Source: a virus
Lineage: Duplodnaviria > Caudoviricetes
Length of the DNA: 54,209 nucleotides
Virus record (IMG/VR): IMGVR_UViG_3300037440_000524
Location: 1-54,209 of that record
Strand: one strand, 5' to 3'
The notes beneath the pieces are model-generated. The model had not been told where the DNA came from, searched no databases, and worked only from the letters and a program-made list of their open reading frames with translations. A program made the translations under genes and the position numbers. The first letter of the stretch is position 1; every line of letters begins with the position of its first letter. Of this stretch, positions 1,962 to 46,919 are shown one piece after another.

Positions 1962-2249
1962 GTGACCCGTCGAGATCGAGAGCTCGCCGCTGACATCGAG
2001 GACCGGATTGTGCGTAGACTCGTCCGACACGGGATCTTGCCGCGTCGCGCATTGGAGGATCTATGCGACGAGGCAACAACACAAGAGGACGAGTCTATGG
2101 ACCATACGAAGAACCCCGCGGCGGATGGCGAGTCATCGTCGTCGATGCCACGGGGCAGCGTACTAGTACGACGTTTGCGCGAGAAAGAGAAGCGTGGGCG
2201 GAGAAACTCGCCGCAGATCGAGAGCTCCAGGCGGAGACGGTCACCGTGA
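1962..2249 (+). CDS. Hypothetical protein overlapping integrase 5' end (excisionase position)
   Basis: GTG start after a G-rich stretch; position only. Confidence 0.35.
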   Translation: MTRRDRELAADIEDRIVRRLVRHGILPRRALEDLCDEATTQEDESMDHTKNPAADGESSSSMPRGSVLVRRLREKEKRGRRNSPQIESSRRRRSP

Positions 2250-3079
2250 GCCGCGCGTTCGAGCTCTATGGCGAGTACCAGGTCGCGAAGGGCAACAAGC
2301 CTCGCAGCATCTCCACGACCATGGATCGGTTGCGCAGCATGTTCACCGATCCCGATGAGTACATCGTCGATCTCAGCAAGCAGCGGTGCCAGCGCCTATA
2401 CGACAACCTGGCGGGGCGCGTGGCCGTTGACACGCACAGGAACACGCTCAACCAGGCGCGCACGTTCCTACGATGGGCTGAGAAGCGTGGCTTCATCAAG
2501 GCGAACCAGCTGCTCCATGTGGACGGCATCGGTAGGCGACGGCGAGGGAAGCCTCAGCTTCGCATCGACGAGGCGCGACAGTTTCTGGCAGTGGCCACGG
2601 CCCTGGCTCGGACCGGTGACAGAGGAGCGCTCGGGTCGATGATGGCTCTGTTGATGGGGATGAGGGCGAGCGAGATCCTTCGCCTTCAGTCCCGTGATGT
2701 GGACGACGCCGGGCGGGTGGTCTGGATCGATGACGCCAAGACGGAGGCGGGTCGTAGGACGCTCTACGTTTCGCCGGAGCTAACGGATCTGCTCATGGAT
2801 GCGGCCCGCGACGGGGGCGCCCTGTTCCCGACCACGGAACACCAGTGGCTGAACCGGCAGGTGGAGAAGCTCTGCTCCATCGCTGGGGTCCCTCGAGTGT
2901 GCAGCCACGGTCTCCGCGGGACCCACGCCACCCTGGGCACCGAGTTTGGCTCGAGCTCCCTGGTGGTCAGCCAGGCCCTCGGACACGCCAACGAGGGCAT
3001 CACCCGGGCGCACTACACTCTCCCCGAGGCAACGTCCGTCGCCCTCCAGCGGCGGGTCACTCTCAGGCTCAAGGAGTAG
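2063..3079 (+). CDS. int: Tyrosine recombinase / phage integrase
   Basis: GMRASE (R), AKT (K), HGLR, LGH, HY catalytic residues; N-terminal arm-binding-like region. Confidence 0.95.
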   Translation: MRRGNNTRGRVYGPYEEPRGGWRVIVVDATGQRTSTTFAREREAWAEKLAADRELQAETVTVSRAFELYGEYQVAKGNKPRSISTTMDRLRSMFTDPDEYIVDLSKQRCQRLYDNLAGRVAVDTHRNTLNQARTFLRWAEKRGFIKANQLLHVDGIGRRRRGKPQLRIDEARQFLAVATALARTGDRGALGSMMALLMGMRASEILRLQSRDVDDAGRVVWIDDAKTEAGRRTLYVSPELTDLLMDAARDGGALFPTTEHQWLNRQVEKLCSIAGVPRVCSHGLRGTHATLGTEFGSSSLVVSQALGHANEGITRAHYTLPEATSVALQRRVTLRLKE

Positions 3080-3081
3080 CT

Positions 3082-3408
3082 ATGGACCAACGAGGGGCAA
3101 GGAATCGCAACTGGAAGGGCGGGGTCTCAGCAGAGGCGTACCGCTACACCAAGCGGTTCAGGGTGAAGTACCCCGAGAAGGCTCGAGCGCACGACAAGGT
3201 GCGCCGGGCCATCGAGGCGGGCCTTCTGGTGAGGATGCCGTGCGAGGCCTGTGGGGCCGAGCGCGCCCACGCTCATCATGAGGATTACTCGGCGCCCCTC
3301 GATGTCCGATGGATCTGTCAGAAGTGCCACAGCGGAGTACATGCAGGTTCGCTCCGGGTGGAGTCGCCTCGCACCCCCTTCGAATGGCGGGGGAGGGTGC
3401 GTAAGTGA
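3082..3408 (+). CDS. HNH-type endonuclease
   Basis: NRNWKGG, PCEACG..AHAHHEDYSAPLDVRWICQKCH; SD AAGGAG upstream. Confidence 0.8.
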   Translation: MDQRGARNRNWKGGVSAEAYRYTKRFRVKYPEKARAHDKVRRAIEAGLLVRMPCEACGAERAHAHHEDYSAPLDVRWICQKCHSGVHAGSLRVESPRTPFEWRGRVRK

Positions 3409-3418
3409 CCCCATCGAA

Positions 3419-3596
3419 CCTTTCCGCAGCCTTTCCGCAGAGAGATTCGATGGGGGCTAAGTTGTCGGGGCGACAAGATTTGAACTTGCGACCCCCAGAC
3501 CCCCAGTCCAAGGGGGCCGAGCAATATCCGACATGTAGTCAACGTATTTTTCCGCGGCCCGGCAAGATCCCGTCTTCGTTGGTGGTACTGCGGAAA
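3419..3596. promoter_or_regulatory. Putative integrase arm-type sites flanking the attP core
   Basis: CCTTTCCGCAG tandem at 3419-3440; TTTCCGCGG at 3549-3557; inverted CTGCGGAAA at 3588-3596. Confidence 0.65.
3464..3508 (-). other. attP core: 3' half of tRNA-Pro(GGG)
   Basis: Reverse complement GACTGGGGGTCTGGGGGTCGCAAGTTCAAATCTTGTCGCCCCGAC contains the anticodon loop, T arm and 3' acceptor strand; no 5' half; lies downstream of the integrase. Confidence 0.88.
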
Positions 3597-3628
3597 ACTG
3601 TCTCCCCCACCCCCGAGCAGGTGAGCCG

Positions 3629-3865
3629 ATGAGCGCCCGCGAGACCGTCCCCGGCGATCGCCGCTGGGTCCGCACCGCTGAGCGACGGCCACCGAGCGGC
3701 TGGGAGGGCGTGGTCATGCGCTCGGACGGCCACGAGACCAGGCTGGTCTACGAGCGGCCTCTGTGGTGGCTGCCGGACCGGTCCATGTACGTCTACTACC
3801 AGCCGGTCATGTGGGCGGAGGAGGAGTCACCGGCCCGCCCGAAGTCGAGGGAGGGGTCGCGATGA
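3629..3865 (+). CDS. Hypothetical protein
   Basis: SD-like AGGTG; coupled to the next ORF by ATGA. Confidence 0.6.
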   Translation: MSARETVPGDRRWVRTAERRPPSGWEGVVMRSDGHETRLVYERPLWWLPDRSMYVYYQPVMWAEEESPARPKSREGSR

Positions 3866-4041
3866 GCCGGGCATTGGCGAAAGCGCTTGCACGTGAGGCC
3901 GCGTCCGCGTTGCTCACGGGGCTGGCGACCAAGGTTGGGGAGAACTTGGCGACCTGGATCCTGCGGCCAAGAGCTGACGTATCCGAGCAGGCAAGCCCAG
4001 AGACCCGATGCGAGTCCGAGGACAAGCAGGTGACCCGATGA
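3862..4041 (+). CDS. Hypothetical protein
   Basis: ATGA-coupled on both sides; start MSRALAKA. Confidence 0.55.
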   Translation: MSRALAKALAREAASALLTGLATKVGENLATWILRPRADVSEQASPETRCESEDKQVTR

Positions 4042-4370
4042 GCCGCTCCGACTCTACTCCGACTCTACTCCCACCATCCTCCGACTGGCCGGACTGGTAC
4101 ACCCCGAGCTCGGCCAGGAGGGCGGCCAATCTGCGGGTGCTGCGTGGACTGCACCCGTTCGGGTTCGCACTCGGCCCTGAGGGCTCTACCTGCGGCACGT
4201 GTGAGCACCTCTACAGGCGCCAGTACGCGAGCGTGTACTGGAAGTGCCGTCTCGCCATGCGCGCCGGGGGCGGCACCGGGGGCCCGTCCACAGACGTGGT
4301 CAAGCGCTGGCGCGGATGTGACCGCTGGGAGACCAGCTGCGAGTCCGAAGCCAAGAAGGTGGCTCGATGA
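4038..4370 (+). CDS. Hypothetical Cys-containing protein
   Basis: GLHPFG..CGTCEH..YWKC..GCDRW; ATGA-coupled. Confidence 0.65.
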   Translation: MSRSDSTPTLLPPSSDWPDWYTPSSARRAANLRVLRGLHPFGFALGPEGSTCGTCEHLYRRQYASVYWKCRLAMRAGGGTGGPSTDVVKRWRGCDRWETSCESEAKKVAR

Positions 4371-4597
4371 GCTCCCACGTCACCTGCTGCAGCGAGGTCG
4401 AGCCAGGCGTCACGGTTTGCCGCGGCCCGGCCACGCGCAAGGTCTACACCGACACGTACCGGAGCGCCGCGTGGTGCCAACGGTGCCGACGCCGGCGGGT
4501 TCATCGGCTGGTCTGGACCGAGACCGTAGAGCCCAGCTACTACGAGCCGCACCCGAAGTGGGAGTGCCCCTGCGCTCGCATCACCTGGAGCGACTAA
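4367..4597 (+). CDS. Hypothetical Cys-rich protein
   Basis: CQRC, CPC; ATGA-coupled. Confidence 0.55.
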   Translation: MSSHVTCCSEVEPGVTVCRGPATRKVYTDTYRSAAWCQRCRRRRVHRLVWTETVEPSYYEPHPKWECPCARITWSD

Positions 4598-4697
4598 TGA
4601 CCACCACCGACACGTCCACGATGCCATGCGGTTGCCGTTGTCACTACTGGGTAATGCGCGGGGTGCCGAGGAGCGCTGGAAACACGAGGAGGAACCT

Positions 4698-4916
4698 GTG
4701 AAACTACCCATCACCGATGAGCTACAATATCTGCTCGGGAAGGCACTAGACGTCATCTGTCTCCCCGGCCACGCGCTATCCAACGAGGAGTGGGAGCGTG
4801 CCCTGATTTTGTCCGGGCGTTATTGCGAGCCGTATCTCTCTCACCGCGAGCGAGTCGCTGAAGCTGAACGCCTGCGGGCCCACTGGTTCGCCGCCATCGC
4901 GGCGAGGAAGAAGTAA
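4698..4916 (+). CDS. Hypothetical protein
   Basis: Strong SD GAGGAGG before the GTG at 4698. Confidence 0.55.
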   Translation: MKLPITDELQYLLGKALDVICLPGHALSNEEWERALILSGRYCEPYLSHRERVAEAERLRAHWFAAIAARKK

Positions 4917-34601: not shown

Positions 34602-36131
34602 TCAGGGTTCGCCATTCTCCACTCCTTCGCCTGCCTTGCTTTGCGACGCCTCCTCTCCTCCGTCATCTTCTCCGCCATCGGCGACAGTCCTTTCCTCGTC
34701 GTCACCCCCAGTAGTCGAAACGACGGGAGGTACCGTGGGCTGCAGTCTAGCGCGCTCCTCGAATGAAATGATCGTCTCGAAACTGTAGACGTCGCCGCCA
34801 AACCTAGAAGCGGCCACCTCCTCAGGCGAGAGCACCTGCATCTCGATATACGTCTTGTCCGTCTCAGCCTGGACGCGCCGCGCCTCAGCGATCTCCTTGT
34901 CGTCTGCCTGCCAGAGCGACTGCCACTCGATGGACCAGTGGTCAGGCTCTACACCACCGGTGGGGCCGTCCTTCGCCAGCATCAGGAGCTGAAACAAACG
35001 CTCCACCTGCGGCTTGGTGAAGCGCTGCTCCTCGGAGGCAAGGTCGTAGAAGCTCCGGGTATCCGCGTCACCGGTCGCGTTTAGTCCAGCCGGTGATCGC
35101 CCCATCAGGATGGTCACCGGGATTCCGGTATCGGCCGACACCATCTGCATCAGGCGGTCGATCGTCTCGGCGAACCCAGTCATCGGCGTGGTCTGCCACT
35201 GGAAGTCATCCTCTGCGTCGATCGGCATCATCTTGAGGACCGAGCGCATGAAGTCGAGAAGCTCGAGACGCGCCTTGATGAGCCCGTCCCCGTCCTCGGC
35301 CATCGCGCGCGCGAGATCCTTCATCTTGACGATTGCCTGCGCTGACTGCCCTAGCAGTGCAGCAGCCGACGCCGAGCCCTGCACCAGGTCACGCAGTCTC
35401 GAGCGCACCCGGGTCAGCACCGAGTCGCCACAGCCCTCACGAACGCCAGGCAGCGGCTCGTGCGTCACCCGAATACCGGGGAAGACGATGAGCCGGGATG
35501 CGTGGATGAGCATCTGCGGGTTGCCAGCACCGCGCCAGCCCAGCGGATGAAACAGCCAGACCTCGACCTCGCCGTCATCGTCGTATCGCCATGGCTGAAG
35601 CTCACGCGGCTCGATTACGCGCGATAGCTTCTCGATACTGAGAATTCGATCCTCGCGCAGCGGATCCGCCAGATCGAACGCGCCATCATTCATGAACGGG
35701 ATGATCGCGCTCAGTCCATACGCTCGCTCGTACTCCTTGGCGCGGATAAACTTGGCGTTCGCGCCCAGCTCATCCGCCTGCATGATGAGCTGCTCGGCCT
35801 GCTCCTTGTCCTCAAGCTTTACCTCGTAGCCCTCGCGAAACATGGTCCTCGGCAGGAGCTCGATGATCCGCGCGGCGATACCGTCCGACCGCCACATCTC
35901 CCTCGCCTCAACATCCGAGACCGCAAGCGTGCTCCAGCCAGCGTGCATCCGCTTGTCGCGCGACAAGCCGAGCCCGGTAGCGACATTGGTCAGGCCGTCA
36001 ATGCGCGGCGCCTTTTTGCGCTTGCCCCCCGGATTACCAGACACTCCAGGAGCAAATCTGCCGCCCTTCACCCTGCTAGAGCCCTGCTTTGGCGTGCTCA
36101 CCACCTCACGATGCACGTGCGAGGCGGGCAA
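34602..36131 (-). CDS. Portal protein (DUF1073-like)
   Basis: IHASRLIVF.G, GDSVL, IPVTILMGRSPAGLNATG..D...FYD. Confidence 0.92.
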   Translation of the reverse strand: MPASHVHREVVSTPKQGSSRVKGGRFAPGVSGNPGGKRKKAPRIDGLTNVATGLGLSRDKRMHAGWSTLAVSDVEAREMWRSDGIAARIIELLPRTMFREGYEVKLEDKEQAEQLIMQADELGANAKFIRAKEYERAYGLSAIIPFMNDGAFDLADPLREDRILSIEKLSRVIEPRELQPWRYDDDGEVEVWLFHPLGWRGAGNPQMLIHASRLIVFPGIRVTHEPLPGVREGCGDSVLTRVRSRLRDLVQGSASAAALLGQSAQAIVKMKDLARAMAEDGDGLIKARLELLDFMRSVLKMMPIDAEDDFQWQTTPMTGFAETIDRLMQMVSADTGIPVTILMGRSPAGLNATGDADTRSFYDLASEEQRFTKPQVERLFQLLMLAKDGPTGGVEPDHWSIEWQSLWQADDKEIAEARRVQAETDKTYIEMQVLSPEEVAASRFGGDVYSFETIISFEERARLQPTVPPVVSTTGGDDEERTVADGGEDDGGEEASQSKAGEGVENGEP

Positions 36132-36162: not shown

Positions 36163-38673
36163 TTAGATCATCGCCCGGAACCTGGCAGTTGCCGACATCG
36201 TGGTCTGCAGCGCCTGGTAGGCGTGCACCAGAGCGTCTACCTGGTCATCGTGAGCATCGTTGACCCCGGTAAACGAGCGCATCTCGGACAGGAAGTCGCC
36301 CACCCATGGCGCCTCACGCGGCACGTGGACCCGCCCAGCTGACCAAGCGGCCGCCAGCGGCTGCGCCCGCGTGAACTTGTCGCCCTCTGGCTTGATTTCC
36401 TCGATCCTCAGCTGCGGCGAGGCGCGCCTGAGCATCTGTGGCACCGCTTTGAAGCCAGACACCGCCTCGACCAAGATCGGCGCCCCCTTGGCCCAGGTGC
36501 TCGTACGCTGAATCCCGAGCAGCCGATCGACCAGCTCGGGGATCTCGACCTGCCATCTGTGCACGTCGAGCACGTAGGTCTCAGCGTTGTCGCCATATCC
36601 GCGCATTGCAGCAACCACCACGGCCGAGTAGTCTGCCCGGGTCTTAGCCGATGCGGCAGGGTCGCACGCCATTACGATCCTGAAGCCGCGCGACTCCCAT
36701 GTCTCGAGGTCGAATCGGCTCGGCTCGCCGAACATCGAGGCGCCGCGCGGGCGTGGCTCCTGCTGGTATAACGACCACCAGCCGTATTCGTTGCTGTTTG
36801 CCCGCCTGGCAATCATCCATTCCATCGGATACCGCTCAGGCCAGAGTGATTGCGCCTTATCGGGATCCACACGCTCGTCAACTGGGCGGCCAGCGCCGTC
36901 GTGGACAGCAGGAACAATGACCTCCTCCCACCTGCCTGGGTACTCGTTGCGCAGCCAGCCAATTGGGTCGTCTTCATGCCATCGTGTCGCGCAAACGATC
37001 ACCGATGAGCCGGGATGGAGCCGAGACTCGAGGTCGTCCTGAATCTTGGCCTTGAGCTTCTCTCGGATGGTCGGCGACTCGGCCTCGCTGCGATTTTTCA
37101 ACAAATCGTCGATCACCATGCAGTTGTGGACGAGTACTTCCTCAGCAAAGAAGTTGTGATTCCCTTCCACCTGGAGGTCATAGACGCGGACGCCTGGATC
37201 GCGTATTCGCCTAACCGAGGCCACGGTGTCTTCGACGATTTGTGATGCACCATGTGGCACGACGCGCACAGCGTTACCAAGTTCTCCGGTCGATTGTTCT
37301 TCGGATTGTGGTCGATGTGATGCACAGCCAGCCTGCCCCTGCTGGACGCGCACACATGGCACGCGCGCCCATCCCTCTGAAGGATCATCCTCCGCATCTC
37401 CCTGAAGCACTTCGAGTAGCTCTCCCCATCCTTGAAGTGAGAATTGCCCATCCCTACCATGCGTGCAGAGTGCGCCGCGTCGGCGCAGTTTCGTGAACAG
37501 AACTGTGTCCGGCTGCTCTTTGGATTGAACATCACGCTGCACCACGGACACTCGCGATCCGCCAGAGTCCGTCGCGATGGCCAGCACTCCTTGCTGCAGT
37601 ACTTTTTCCAGCGCCCCGTAATGCTCTTCCGACATGTCACGCACTGCCTTGATACCGGTAAGCGTGCTGGCTTGCGCGACGGTCCTCTTGTCGGTTTGTC
37701 CGGGCGCGCGTTCTGTGCGGTTGACCAGCACCTCTTCGAACAAAATGCCGCCGCCAACCCTTTCCTGAGCGTCTTCTCGTACTCGCCCAGGTGTCGCTCG
37801 AATTCCACCGCACAATGGGCACAGGCTAGCGTCACCATCGTGGACCGCTTGGTGTCGTAGCAGGAGCGGCAGCTCCAACCCCGCCCGTTCTTCGGCTTGC
37901 CACACATCCCGCACGTCCTGTTGCGGCGCGATCGCGCGGATGTCATCCCCGGGTCGAAGAACTTCCGCCGACCGGTAGCCGGCTCCTTCGACGTAGAAGG
38001 GATGGTCCGGGGTAGCTCGGATCTCACGGCCAGAGGTTGTGGTGATAACGCAGAGGTAGTCTGCCCGGATCTCTCTGGCGGCAACAATCCGTCGGTACTC
38101 TTGCCTGCCTCTCGCATGGTTGAACGATAGTACCGCAGGGGGGCGACATAATCGGGAAAGGATTTCTATTGGTATCGGACCTGCCTCGGTGAGCACCCTG
38201 GTCCCGGCGGTGAAACACCCTGAGATCCCCTTGCCCGTAATTGCCCCGTCTCGCCCAATAGCTATCAACCCACCGCCGTACTCCGTGCGCCAGTTGTCAA
38301 TCGCCGCGGCATCGTCGGCGAGCTTCACGTTCCCTCTCAGGGCAGCCATCTTGGCGATGCGTGACTGGTCTCGCGCCAGGCTGTGCCCGTAAGCCACGTA
38401 GGCGTTGAGGCACGCCGGATCTAGCAGGATGCGCCATGCCAGACCGTGCATGAGCGTTACCGACTTACCGGTCTGAGGCGGATAAGAAACCAGTGCCCGC
38501 ACCTCCTCGCGCCGGGTTCGCTCGATAAGGCGCCTCAGAGGCGCCAGGTGGTCCGGGGGCGGCAGGTGCGGCGAGACCCGCCGGATGAAGTCATCTAGGC
38601 TCTCAGCGCCGCTCTGGGCTCTTAGGAGCTCGAGGAGACGTACCTCGTCGTCAGGAGTCCAGGTTCGGGGCAT
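36163..38673 (-). CDS. terL: Terminase large subunit with 365-aa intein
   Basis: Walker A PPQTGKS, Walker B VIDD, TRWHEDD, YQQEP, DPA..ADYSA, HDDQVDA. Confidence 0.95.
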   Translation of the reverse strand: MPRTWTPDDEVRLLELLRAQSGAESLDDFIRRVSPHLPPPDHLAPLRRLIERTRREEVRALVSYPPQTGKSVTLMHGLAWRILLDPACLNAYVAYGHSLARDQSRIAKMAALRGNVKLADDAAAIDNWRTEYGGGLIAIGRDGAITGKGISGCFTAGTRVLTEAGPIPIEILSRLCRPPAVLSFNHARGRQEYRRIVAAREIRADYLCVITTTSGREIRATPDHPFYVEGAGYRSAEVLRPGDDIRAIAPQQDVRDVWQAEERAGLELPLLLRHQAVHDGDASLCPLCGGIRATPGRVREDAQERVGGGILFEEVLVNRTERAPGQTDKRTVAQASTLTGIKAVRDMSEEHYGALEKVLQQGVLAIATDSGGSRVSVVQRDVQSKEQPDTVLFTKLRRRGALCTHGRDGQFSLQGWGELLEVLQGDAEDDPSEGWARVPCVRVQQGQAGCASHRPQSEEQSTGELGNAVRVVPHGASQIVEDTVASVRRIRDPGVRVYDLQVEGNHNFFAEEVLVHNCMVIDDLLKNRSEAESPTIREKLKAKIQDDLESRLHPGSSVIVCATRWHEDDPIGWLRNEYPGRWEEVIVPAVHDGAGRPVDERVDPDKAQSLWPERYPMEWMIARRANSNEYGWWSLYQQEPRPRGASMFGEPSRFDLETWESRGFRIVMACDPAASAKTRADYSAVVVAAMRGYGDNAETYVLDVHRWQVEIPELVDRLLGIQRTSTWAKGAPILVEAVSGFKAVPQMLRRASPQLRIEEIKPEGDKFTRAQPLAAAWSAGRVHVPREAPWVGDFLSEMRSFTGVNDAHDDQVDALVHAYQALQTTMSATARFRAMI
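37113..37946 (-). CDS. Zn-finger/HNH endonuclease nested out of frame within the intein (frame open from 38117; start uncertain)
   Basis: Multiple CxxC and FCSxxC motifs; GMGNSHFKDG; CHVC..VHHIDHNPKNNRPENLVTLCASCH. Confidence 0.88.
   Translation of the reverse strand: MTSARSRRNRTCGMCGKPKNGRGWSCRSCYDTKRSTMVTLACAHCAVEFERHLGEYEKTLRKGLAAAFCSKRCWSTAQNARPDKPTRGPSRKPARLPVSRQCVTCRKSITGRWKKYCSKECWPSRRTLADRECPWCSVMFNPKSSRTQFCSRNCADAAHSARMVGMGNSHFKDGESYSKCFREMRRMILQRDGRACHVCASSRGRLAVHHIDHNPKNNRPENLVTLCASCHMVHHKSSKTPWPRLGEYAIQASASMTSRWKGITTSLLRKYSSTTAW
37123..38217 (-). mobile_element. Intein in terL
   Basis: Block A CFTAGTRVLT, block B ATPDHPF, block F VYDLQVEGNHNFFA, block G VHN followed by extein Cys; removal leaves a 471-aa TerL. 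Confidence 0.93.
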
Positions 38674-39004: not shown

Positions 39005-39315
39005 CCCTTCACCTTTACGAGCGCGGCGCGTACGTGGGCGAGGGCCACACAGAAAACCTCCGCCACGGCGTGCGGGTCGTAATTGGCGGGCCTTCTTTCG
39101 TGACGAGCCAGGGCACGCTCTGCCGCCTCAAGCGCCGCGACGATCTCCGGCTCGGCGTTCACTGTCCTCACAACGAGCTCGGCGATATCGCGCGCACGGT
39201 CACCTTGTGGTGCTAGATAGAGCAGCGACTCTCCGTCGTCAGCAAAAATACAACTGATGTCCGGCTCGAGGTTGACGCGCCACGGCCTCGGAGGGATCTT
39301 GGTCTCTTCGCTCAC
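39001..39315 (-). CDS. Hypothetical protein (PPRPW family, paralog of 39723-40025)
   Basis: IPPRPWR...ELVVRTVNA. Confidence 0.6.
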   Translation of the reverse strand: MSEETKIPPRPWRVNLEPDISCIFADDGESLLYLAPQGDRARDIAELVVRTVNAEPEIVAALEAAERALARHERRPANYDPHAVAEVFCVALAHVRAALVKVKG

Positions 39316-39674
39316 TTGATTACCCCTTTCAGCTCCTTCACCGGCTCGGCCGGCTCGATATCAATCGTCTCCGCCTTGCGCCGGCTCTCGAGTAGCCGGG
39401 CGATCTCCTGCTCGCGCTGGATTGGGGTGAGCGCCTCGGTCGTCACGGTTCCGCTCAGTTCGATCCGCACATCCGCGGGCGCCTTGCCCCAGCCTCGGTC
39501 GAGTAGTTCCCTGATGGCGGTGACCCGGGCTGTCGAGTTTTCATCCGGGTTGAATGCGATCGCAGCCAACGTCGCGATCGCCTCCTCGGTATACTGGCGA
39601 GCCAACATCCGTACATGTTTAGGGATTACTGGGCGACCGCCCGGATTACCACTCTGTCCTTTGACCCACGGCAT
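39312..39674 (-). CDS. Terminase small subunit-like (DUF5681 motif)
   Basis: WVKGQSGNPGGRP, ARVTAIRELLDRGWGKA. Confidence 0.78.
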   Translation of the reverse strand: MPWVKGQSGNPGGRPVIPKHVRMLARQYTEEAIATLAAIAFNPDENSTARVTAIRELLDRGWGKAPADVRIELSGTVTTEALTPIQREQEIARLLESRRKAETIDIEPAEPVKELKGVIK

Positions 39675-46742: not shown

Positions 46743-46846
46743 TTATCCACCTCCCCCGCAGATTGAATAACACGGTCTGGACAGCGAACCGCCCTTCGCC
46801 GGCGTCCCGGCATGGCGCGACCGCGACGCCATCTCGAGATTGTCAG

Positions 46847-46919
46847 AGCCCCCGGACGGACTCGAACCGCCAACATGCGCATTACAGGTGCGCTGCTCTA
46901 CCGATTGAGCTACGGGGGC
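46847..46919 (-). tRNA. tRNA-Thr(TGT), no encoded CCA
   Basis: GCCCCCG/CGGGGGC acceptor, GCTC/GAGC D stem, GCGCA-CCTGTAA-TGCGC anticodon arm, GGTTCGAGTCC T arm. Confidence 0.88.

Follow-up and report, generated by a model that had tools for sequence, protein, structure and literature searches.

A phage large terminase intein with a zinc-ribbon HNH endonuclease in the +1 frame of its interior

Background

An HNH endonuclease lying out of frame within an intein of the large terminase gene (terL) was stated for brucellaphages in 2015 (PMC4422536), with a suggested role in packaging or replication; the portions of that paper available contain no test of selection, splicing or homing. In the record of Brucella phage Tb (NC_019446), terL (2347..4893) bears the remark 'intein present' and a nested coding sequence (3170..3856) is labelled 'putative HNH endonuclease'. 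Here we report the analysis of the terL gene of another tailed phage (Duplodnaviria; Caudoviricetes), IMG/VR record IMGVR_UViG_3300037440_000524, whose whole stretch of 54,209 nucleotides (nt) is referred to below as the window. This gene very probably contains a mobile class-1 intein whose interior encodes the homing endonuclease as a gene of its own, in the +1 frame.

Comparable layouts have been described in other genes. In the actinophage inteins treated by Gosselin, Arsenault and Gogarten (bioRxiv 10.1101/2025.01.02.630785), as far as the available text goes, the endonuclease occupies a separate frame or the opposite strand, and invasion of a mini-intein by a free-standing endonuclease gene is proposed as the origin; the same-strand out-of-frame case is endonuclease VII-like and lies in 'frame 3', while the terL intein of Gordonia phage Clown is named, in the part of the main text available, only as the largest class-1 intein. 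Another preprint (bioRxiv 10.64898/2026.09.14.751524) reports, in the portion available, an out-of-frame LAGLIDADG endonuclease with frame-dependent selection in a cyanobacterial dnaX intein, and traces the first suggestion to Gorbalenya 1998. Dassa et al. 2009 (PMC2677866) described 'fractured genes', i.e. split inteins whose halves are separated by a free-standing endonuclease gene, the 3' end of which overlaps the C-terminal intein part (by 6-69 bp in 15 loci); these endonucleases are GIY-YIG and Vsr-like, and in the sections available HNH is merely predicted as possible. Arsenault et al. 2025 (PMC11855218) reported ShiLan-type HNH enzymes, hidden out of frame in phage DNA methylase genes. 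The novelty that the first-pass annotation of the window had implied for its layout therefore does not stand: the layout has been in print for brucellaphages since 2015 and is treated as a class in the Gogarten-lab papers of 2025-26. Our full-text literature search returned no paper that treats the zinc-ribbon HNH/terL family as a whole.

Results

The terminase gene, its intein and the nested HNH frame

The listing of open reading frames (ORFs) of this 54-kb viral record contains one unbroken minus-strand ORF of 836 amino acids (aa), terL (36163..38673), and, nested in it, a second minus-strand ORF of 334 aa from first ATG to stop (37113..38117), whose start lies 556 nt from that of terL and which is therefore in the +1 frame. 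The Pfam analysis of the terL frame identified Terminase_6C (65.6 bits, 6.6e-18), the RNaseH-like nuclease domain of terminase, and Intein_splicing, PF14890 (53.8-56.9 bits against a cut-off of 35.8; 2.5e-14). The intein is of class 1 and 365 aa long; its first residue is the Cys at 38217, it ends with His-Asn at 37123, and Cys+1 follows. All the expected motif residues are present (C1, T69-x-x-H72, H364-N365 and Cys+1), and the columns of C1, T69, H72, H364 and N365 are invariant across 51 aligned intein sequences. The same Pfam analysis found no HNH match in the 365 aa of the intein frame; the +1 ORF, on the other reading of the same nucleotides, matches HNH_3, PF13392 (27.9 bits, cut-off 24.8), and scores slightly below the cut-off with HNH, PF01844 (19.4 bits, cut-off 21.4). 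In an alignment of 17 sequences, window included, twelve zinc-ribbon cysteines (C99, C102, C126, C130, C159, C162, C174, C178, C190, C193, C207 and C211) and the residues of the HNH core (C253, C256, H266, H267, N279, C284, C287, H288 and H292) are invariant.

In the +1 frame no stop codon occurs over gene nt 508-1557, a stretch that covers nearly the whole intein (gene nt 456-1551), and 18 occur in the 1,460 nt of terL that lie beyond the intein; the third frame has 12 stops within the intein. The HNH frame is open from 38165 and is closed by a TGA 8-10 nt beyond the C-terminal splice junction, among the first extein codons; in 29 of 53 aligned relatives the HNH-frame stop falls at extein codon +1. 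Judging from the motif C-M-V-I-D-D, the intein would be placed just before Walker B; a phmmer search of the PDB matched inteins only and no TerL structure. The features, with the grounds for each in brackets, are as follows.

36163..38673, minus strand: terL, large terminase, intein included (ORF listing and Pfam)
38218..38673, minus strand: N-extein, 152 aa, with the C-terminal end ...AITGKGISG (sequence; junction motif common to relatives)
37123..38217, minus strand: class-1 intein, 365 aa, Cys1 to His-Asn (motifs, Pfam, invariant columns)
37918..38217, minus strand: predicted N-terminal splicing part of the Hint fold, intein residues 1 to ~100 (model confidence; matches to PDB mini-inteins)
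37243..37917, minus strand: intein-frame interior, residues ~101-325, a stop-free linker predicted to be unstructured, the +1 frame of which is the HNH frame (model confidence 43-56, substitution pattern)
37123..37242, minus strand: predicted C-terminal splicing part of the Hint fold, blocks F and G, the +1 reading of which gives the C-terminal helices of the HNH protein (model confidence in both frames, lowered variation)
36163..37122, minus strand: C-extein from Cys+1, with CMVIDD (putative Walker B) and the RNaseH-like nuclease domain (sequence, Pfam)
37113..38117, minus strand: zinc-ribbon HNH endonuclease ORF, 334 aa (ORF listing, Pfam, alignment)
37944..37946, minus strand: best candidate start ATG of the HNH protein, 11 codons before the first CxxC and without a Shine-Dalgarno motif (fold onset, split relatives)
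37485..37913, minus strand: repeated CxxC zinc-ribbon modules, ORF residues 69-211, presumed DNA-binding part (invariant Cys)
37239..37361, minus strand: HNH catalytic core, ORF residues 253-293 (Pfam HNH at 253-293 and HNH_3 at 263-283; invariant residues)
37113..37115, minus strand: TGA stop of the HNH frame (ORF listing)

Predicted structures in the two frames

The AlphaFold model of the intein frame (51 aligned sequences) has pLDDT (predicted local distance difference test) values of 96-98 at residues 1-90 and 331-365, which form Hint strands, 87 at residues 91-100, and 43-56 at residues ~101-325. In the mini-intein 6rpp, found by phmmer against the PDB, one matched stretch stops at residue 124 and the next begins at 126, and their counterparts in the window are 226 residues apart; the match thus flanks the insertion, and the window element corresponds to a mini-intein interrupted where endonucleases usually sit. 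Its in-frame interior is predicted to be a disordered linker of ~225 aa within a mini-intein fold. In the model of the HNH frame (17 aligned sequences), residues 1-62 have pLDDT below 50 and residues ~66-330 mostly 85-97, including two C-terminal helices (residues 301-329, pLDDT 82-91) that overlap blocks F and G.

Most of what the first-pass annotation had said of the layout is borne out by these results. The ORF listing and the motifs agree with its coordinates for TerL, the intein and the +1 ORF; intact splicing residues, for which it had claimed blocks A, B, F and G, are indeed found, together with the PF14890 match and the Hint model; the interior is devoid of a Pfam HNH match in frame and has the low pLDDT given above; and the +1 frame with CxxC zinc modules and a complete HNH, whose stop lies just past the junction, is seen in the HNH_3 match, the invariant ligands and the TGA at 37113-37115.

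Relatives and their spread

A tblastn search with the +1 ORF revealed the same nuclease inside terL, in the +1 frame, in 41 Brucella phage records and in Gordonia phage Clown. In Clown the HNH match is offset by 736 nt (+1) and is not annotated as a gene; its +1 ORF has Pfam matches to HNH_3 and HNH and none to Endonuclease_7, and Mycobacterium phage methylase records match its HNH. The search of a large protein collection gave 22 hits, 15 of them below 1e-40, and the closer ones mostly share the C-terminal end ...SMTS(K/R)W....TSL....SSTTA, the sequence that intein blocks F and G give when read in the +1 frame. As regards the host gene, 1,118 phage records match the C-extein part, each with less than 60% identity, and the sole blastn match of terL among cultured phages is 122 nt in Clown.

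With alignment A1, 80 viral and 80 metagenome loci were gathered; 164 loci were fetched in all. The single-protein scan of viral contigs gave 11 candidate stretches, none of which was confirmed, and that of genome contigs gave one partial locus (L004). An HNH-core match of at least 120 aa is present in 123 of the 164 loci, which form 104 clusters at 95% nucleotide identity. In 80 clusters a long terL/intein ORF runs across the HNH without a stop; four further clusters have intein matches with stops in the intein frame (L030, L038, L122, L147), two have the HNH nested in another frame of a DNA methylase gene (L040, L046), and 18 are stand-alone or unresolved. The lack of stops is part of what defines these 80 loci; counted without that bias, the proportion is 80 of 84, the latter being the loci with intein or TerL matches in their flanks. 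None of the 104 clusters has its HNH in the intein's own frame. All matching pieces of intein or extein fall in HNH frame +2, and the third frame of the 80 has 2-20 stops; an exception among the 80 is L094, where the C-extein lies in a different frame downstream. Boundaries were resolved automatically in 52 of the 62 loci with both intein ends matched, and all 52 have Cys1, His-Asn and Cys+1 and the same insertion site, xTGxxxx↓C(L/I/V)(I/L), where the arrow marks the junction.

Several loci deserve separate mention. In L030 (2238-4883) and L038 (2217-4949), phage contigs with a guanine-plus-cytosine (GC) content of ~0.3, terL is truly split: the ORF of the N-extein and Hint-N ends in a stop, straight after which the HNH family follows as its own ORF, with an ATG start 11 codons before the first CxxC, and a third ORF begins with a Hint-C part of ~40 aa fused to the terminase C-extein, i.e. 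an HNH-type 'fractured gene'. In L040 (2666-5173) and L046 (2660-4771; GC ~0.32) a more distant HNH relative (25-30% identity) is nested in an open N6_N4_Mtase ORF, the host frame being HNH frame +1, and no intein profile match is found. The short contigs L104 (153-1247) and L120 (389-1450), on which no terL was found, carry HNH relatives with 42-45% identity; the former intein frame has 9-16 stops, while the T-G-R-R motif and a C-terminal tail resembling the intein overlap are kept, and in L104 a block-B-like T-x-H-H...G...A..VL can still be made out in the -1 frame. These two may be escaped or decayed elements. Three identical loci, L123-125 (e.g. HNH match L124:1873-2550), have one HNH-frame stop and an open intein frame, as though the endonuclease were decaying; the copies in L122 and L147 are degenerate. 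The terL ORFs of L098, L146, L091, L118, L114, L135 and L007 are 1,090-1,329 aa long, far beyond what intein and exteins need, and in L135 the C-extein match begins ~930 nt past the junction; this suggests that further inteins or insertions are carried in the same gene. Two outgroup loci have in-frame nucleases: L056 (1855-5460), a terL of 1,202 aa that matches Intein_splicing, has a tblastn match of the HNH core in frame and, further along, matches LAGLIDADG, and L071 (1885-6129), a dnaE intein with an in-frame HNH and a GcrA-like match inside the intein.

Stop depletion and selection by frame

In the shuffle test the synonymous codons of the HNH core were permuted 5,000 times with protein and codon usage kept. 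For the window, 5.1 intein-frame stops are expected on average and none is seen (P(0) = 0.0024); the third frame has 7 stops against 7.7 expected. Over the 80 loci, with GC from 0.31 to 0.69, the mean expectation is 8.4 intein-frame stops (1.1-23.9), and P(0) is below 0.05 in 71 of them; the third frame is without depletion (9.2 seen, 8.3 expected). An intein-frame stop requires, in the HNH frame, NNT followed by AAN, AGN or GAN, so that openness costs the HNH only synonymous third-position choices; from the codon table, the frame relation would always be the one in which openness of the intein frame depends on HNH third positions alone.

Mismatches were counted by terL codon position in 18 independent pairs of related loci, and what follows on selection in the HNH frame is therefore a result for the family rather than for the window alone. 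Both flanks exhibit the ordinary coding pattern of the terL frame, with rates at positions 1/2/3 of 0.147/0.087/0.340 upstream (N-extein and intein start) and 0.141/0.103/0.348 downstream (C-extein). Over the HNH core the rates become 0.315/0.160/0.135; because terL position 1 is HNH position 3, this is the pattern of the HNH frame (position 3 > position 1 > position 2). Over the last ~40 codons of the HNH ORF they are 0.148/0.093/0.174. In the pair L114/L116 (93% identical), HNH position 3 takes 41 of 48 core changes and terL position 3 takes 33 of 34 upstream changes. In the junction-anchored alignment of 53 sequences, the third positions of the block F Val, Tyr and Asp codons are far less variable than extein third positions, and the same bases read S-M-T in the HNH frame.

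These patterns show that purifying selection maintains the TerL frame in the exteins and the HNH frame in the interior of the intein, and that it maintains both over the final ~110 nt. The ~110 nt at the 3' end of the HNH are thus truly dual-coded with blocks F and G, and, zone by zone, the substitution patterns leave the intein-frame interior constrained only to stay open. A dual-coded element whose intein frame is kept free of stops had been proposed from the window, and a test for purifying selection on the HNH frame had been called for; the former is upheld by the shuffle test (P(0) = 0.0024) and the 80 of 84 loci, the latter by the mismatch pattern of the 18 pairs.

Candidate starts of the HNH protein

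The candidate HNH starts in the window are ATG 38117, TTG 38087, TTG 38084, GTG 38027 and ATG 37946, the last lying just upstream of the predicted fold onset (ORF residue ~66). In 22 of 77 loci an ATG lies 47-53 codons ahead of the first CxxC, and in 13 of these it is accompanied by a motif resembling a Shine-Dalgarno sequence; the commonest single ATG position is -51 (9 loci, 8 with such a motif). In Brucella phages the HNH start is a GTG after AAGGAG. The starts in the split and other relatives make independent internal initiation a habit of the HNH family, and in the window, too, the HNH is most likely started internally, with ATG 37946 as the likeliest start.

Discussion

Proposed mechanism and signs of mobility

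On the interpretation favoured here, translation of terL would yield a precursor in which a stop-free linker of ~225 residues separates the two parts of the Hint fold (the first ~100 residues and the last ~40); the intein would then excise itself and restore TerL. We infer splicing because the motifs are intact and TerL is essential. Ribosomes initiating inside the intein, most likely at ATG 37946, would produce a free zinc-ribbon HNH nuclease of ~277 aa, which would be expected to cut intein-less terL at xTGxxxx↓C(L/I/V)(I/L)DD, the repair copying the whole element. Selection would act on the HNH protein, on the stop-free state of the intein frame, and on both frames over the last ~110 nt. 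What the data show is the anatomy, the conservation of the two open frames and the purifying selection specific to each frame; splicing, start codon, cleavage target and current mobility are inferences, and the HNH enzyme probably spreads the intein.

Several observations hint at ongoing homing without proving it. Exteins fall to 18-30% identity and the HNH holds 40-50%, yet the insertion site does not change; the identities of HNH and extein are weakly correlated (Spearman 0.31, 984 pairs). In the 41-kb contigs L162 and L163 the intein with its HNH (~900-1800 of L162) differs at 2 of 900 nt, and several flanking terL intervals differ by 5-17%. Finally, a 151-nt contig of sequencing run X3 (record 8) matches the last 63 nt of the intein (37120-37182) with 5 differences and departs from the window exactly at the junction, a hint of a similar intein in a different terL allele.

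Points against, and alternative explanations

Some of the evidence weighs against the proposed interpretation. A Shine-Dalgarno-like motif precedes none of the five candidate HNH starts in the window (by a crude count, 15 of 29 other window genes have one at the longest start), and the -51 ATG of some relatives is absent from it. Contigs of runs X2, X3 and X4, which come from other studies and cover the stretch in part, differ from it by three single-nucleotide polymorphisms (SNPs), two of which fall inside the HNH and are non-synonymous in its frame (V221G, N198K); two sites are too few to weigh on selection. The sequencing runs listed as carrying the stretch included none of RNA. Foldseek with the HNH model returned nothing from the PDB at E <= 0.001, the best hits (E 0.015-0.4) being the HNH nucleases Cas9 (4oge), Cas5-HNH (8yha), McrA (6ghc) and GVE2 (5h0m) and also a zinc-ribbon protein. 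The alignment of L162 and L163 is mosaic elsewhere, with other intervals at 0%, so that their near-identical intein is no proof of homing. To these must be added the partly circular definition of the 80 loci mentioned above.

Could the HNH of the window be a recently inactivated relic, i.e. could the element be a mini-intein with a long junk linker that has had too little time to collect stops? The missing ribosome-binding site and the two non-synonymous population SNPs would fit this possibility, and decaying copies do occur in the family (the single HNH-frame stop of L123-125, the degenerate L122 and L147). We consider it improbable, in view of the fact that the window retains every family-invariant Cys, His and Asn, that its HNH ORF runs at full length to the junction and is modelled confidently over residues 66-330, and that purifying selection on the HNH frame is clear at the level of the family.

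A programmed +1 ribosomal frameshift, giving a fusion of N-extein, Hint-N and HNH that ends just past the junction, seems to us quite improbable as the route by which the HNH is made. It would account for the want of a Shine-Dalgarno motif or conserved start in the window and for the openness of the HNH frame from 38165, ~80 codons upstream of the folded part; over 77 loci the distance from the upstream stop to the first CxxC has a median of 79 codons, against a +1-stop spacing of ~27 codons in the exteins. However, L030 and L038 have a closed frame upstream, which leaves the HNH no start but its own ATG; in other relatives a Shine-Dalgarno-like motif goes with the ATG; and ORF residues 1-62 are predicted to be disordered. 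Moreover, part of the N-terminal extension persists as HNH sequence in L104, where the intein frame is broken and no terL was found on the contig; this accounts in part for the openness of the HNH frame upstream. Frameshifting is also without positive evidence, slippery or stalling sites not having been searched for. Of the separate translation proposed in the first-pass annotation, the internal start is thus backed by the split relatives and by the ATGs with Shine-Dalgarno-like motifs, and the frameshift offered beside it has gained nothing. The last alternative, two compensating indels displacing an in-frame HNH intein through an assembly or sequencing error, has a virtually negligible probability, given that the contigs of the three other runs have 0 indels (run depth covers 30/30 bins of the stretch in X2, 24/30 in X3 and 8/30 in X4; run X1, from which this DNA may itself derive, was not counted as independent), that the same +1 offset recurs in 80 non-redundant loci and in repeatedly sequenced cultured phages, and that the substitution periodicity changes frame as dual coding predicts. 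The dual-frame layout is genuine and not an assembly error; the check for compensating indels that had been called for found none, nor any of the 104 clusters with the HNH in the intein frame.

A wider reading, and what the family may teach

The HNH lineage is found in four states: overprinted on a contiguous terL intein (80 loci), between the two halves of a split one (L030, L038), alone (L104, L120) and nested in a methylase gene (L040, L046). It is conceivable, though we hold the idea only tentatively, that the HNH/terL family forms a natural series of endonuclease gain and loss by inteins, in which parts of the nuclease were born by overprinting and were carried along on escape. Both ends of the nuclease would then be dual-coded with Hint splicing blocks; in a comparison by eye, the C-terminal tail of L104 and L120 is identical to the overlap-derived segment at 12 of 36 positions. 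If this were true, the family would document, in living intermediates, how endonuclease genes enter, split and leave inteins.

Out-of-frame homing endonucleases bear on the question of how inteins and endonucleases joined (the 'splicing first' model), and the present family is a clean natural case of long overlapping genes on one strand, where all that is asked of one frame is to remain open. As a comparative set, it turns the brucellaphage-type element into a large family, spanning GC 0.31-0.69, with split-intein relatives and relatives with a broken intein frame. There is also a lesson for annotation, in that the nested HNH is either overlooked by gene callers (Gordonia phage Clown is an example) or called by itself.

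As regards the rest of the window, it has the genes of a tailed phage (portal, major capsid, a DUF3383 match, baseplate J, DnaB helicase, integrase). The integrase is a tyrosine integrase at 2063-3079, plus strand (Phage_integrase, 3.9e-13), and a tRNA-Thr(TGT) gene lies at 46846-46919, minus strand; the phage is probably temperate. The portal protein (34602-36131, minus strand) has a short DUF5681-type G-N-P-G-G-(K/R) motif at its N-terminus, and a small ORF upstream of terL (39312-39674, minus strand) starts with the same motif (MPWVKGQSGNPGGRP...).

Comparison with known systems

The window element joins, as another intact member, a family of already published design, and for that reason leaves the picture in the field unchanged. 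The closest described element is that of the Brucella phage Tb/Pr group (Perisivirus), which has an HNH with 32% identity over 72% of the window ORF (E 3e-19), the same +1 offset (823 nt, against 556 nt in the window), a stop-free intein frame and the same insertion site (GITGNRAD↓C ... HN↓CVI). It differs from the window in its shorter HNH (228 aa) with fewer zinc ribbons and the GTG start described above, and its exteins are only distantly related. The actinophage and dnaX inteins, as far as the available parts of the two preprints describe them, likewise place the splicing domain in the host frame and the endonuclease in a different one, with an interior without recognisable in-frame structure, and the frame-dependent selection of dnaX resembles that of the terL/HNH family; the window, however, has a zinc-ribbon HNH in frame 2, unlike the endonuclease VII-like actinophage case in 'frame 3' and the LAGLIDADG enzyme of dnaX. 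The fractured-gene layout is matched exactly by the terL of L030 and L038, whereas terL of the window is one ORF. The ShiLan type, in the portion of that paper available, shares with the window an HNH nested out of frame in a host frame that stays open, but it lacks an intein splicing domain, and its host protein is believed to accommodate the inserted part as a loop; in the ShiLan-like L040 and L046, moreover, the host frame is HNH frame +1, unlike terL of the window, which is HNH frame +2. Finally, canonical HNH inteins, exemplified by the terL of L056 and the dnaE of L071, combine Hint with an HNH at the endonuclease site, as the window does, but carry the HNH in the frame of the intein.

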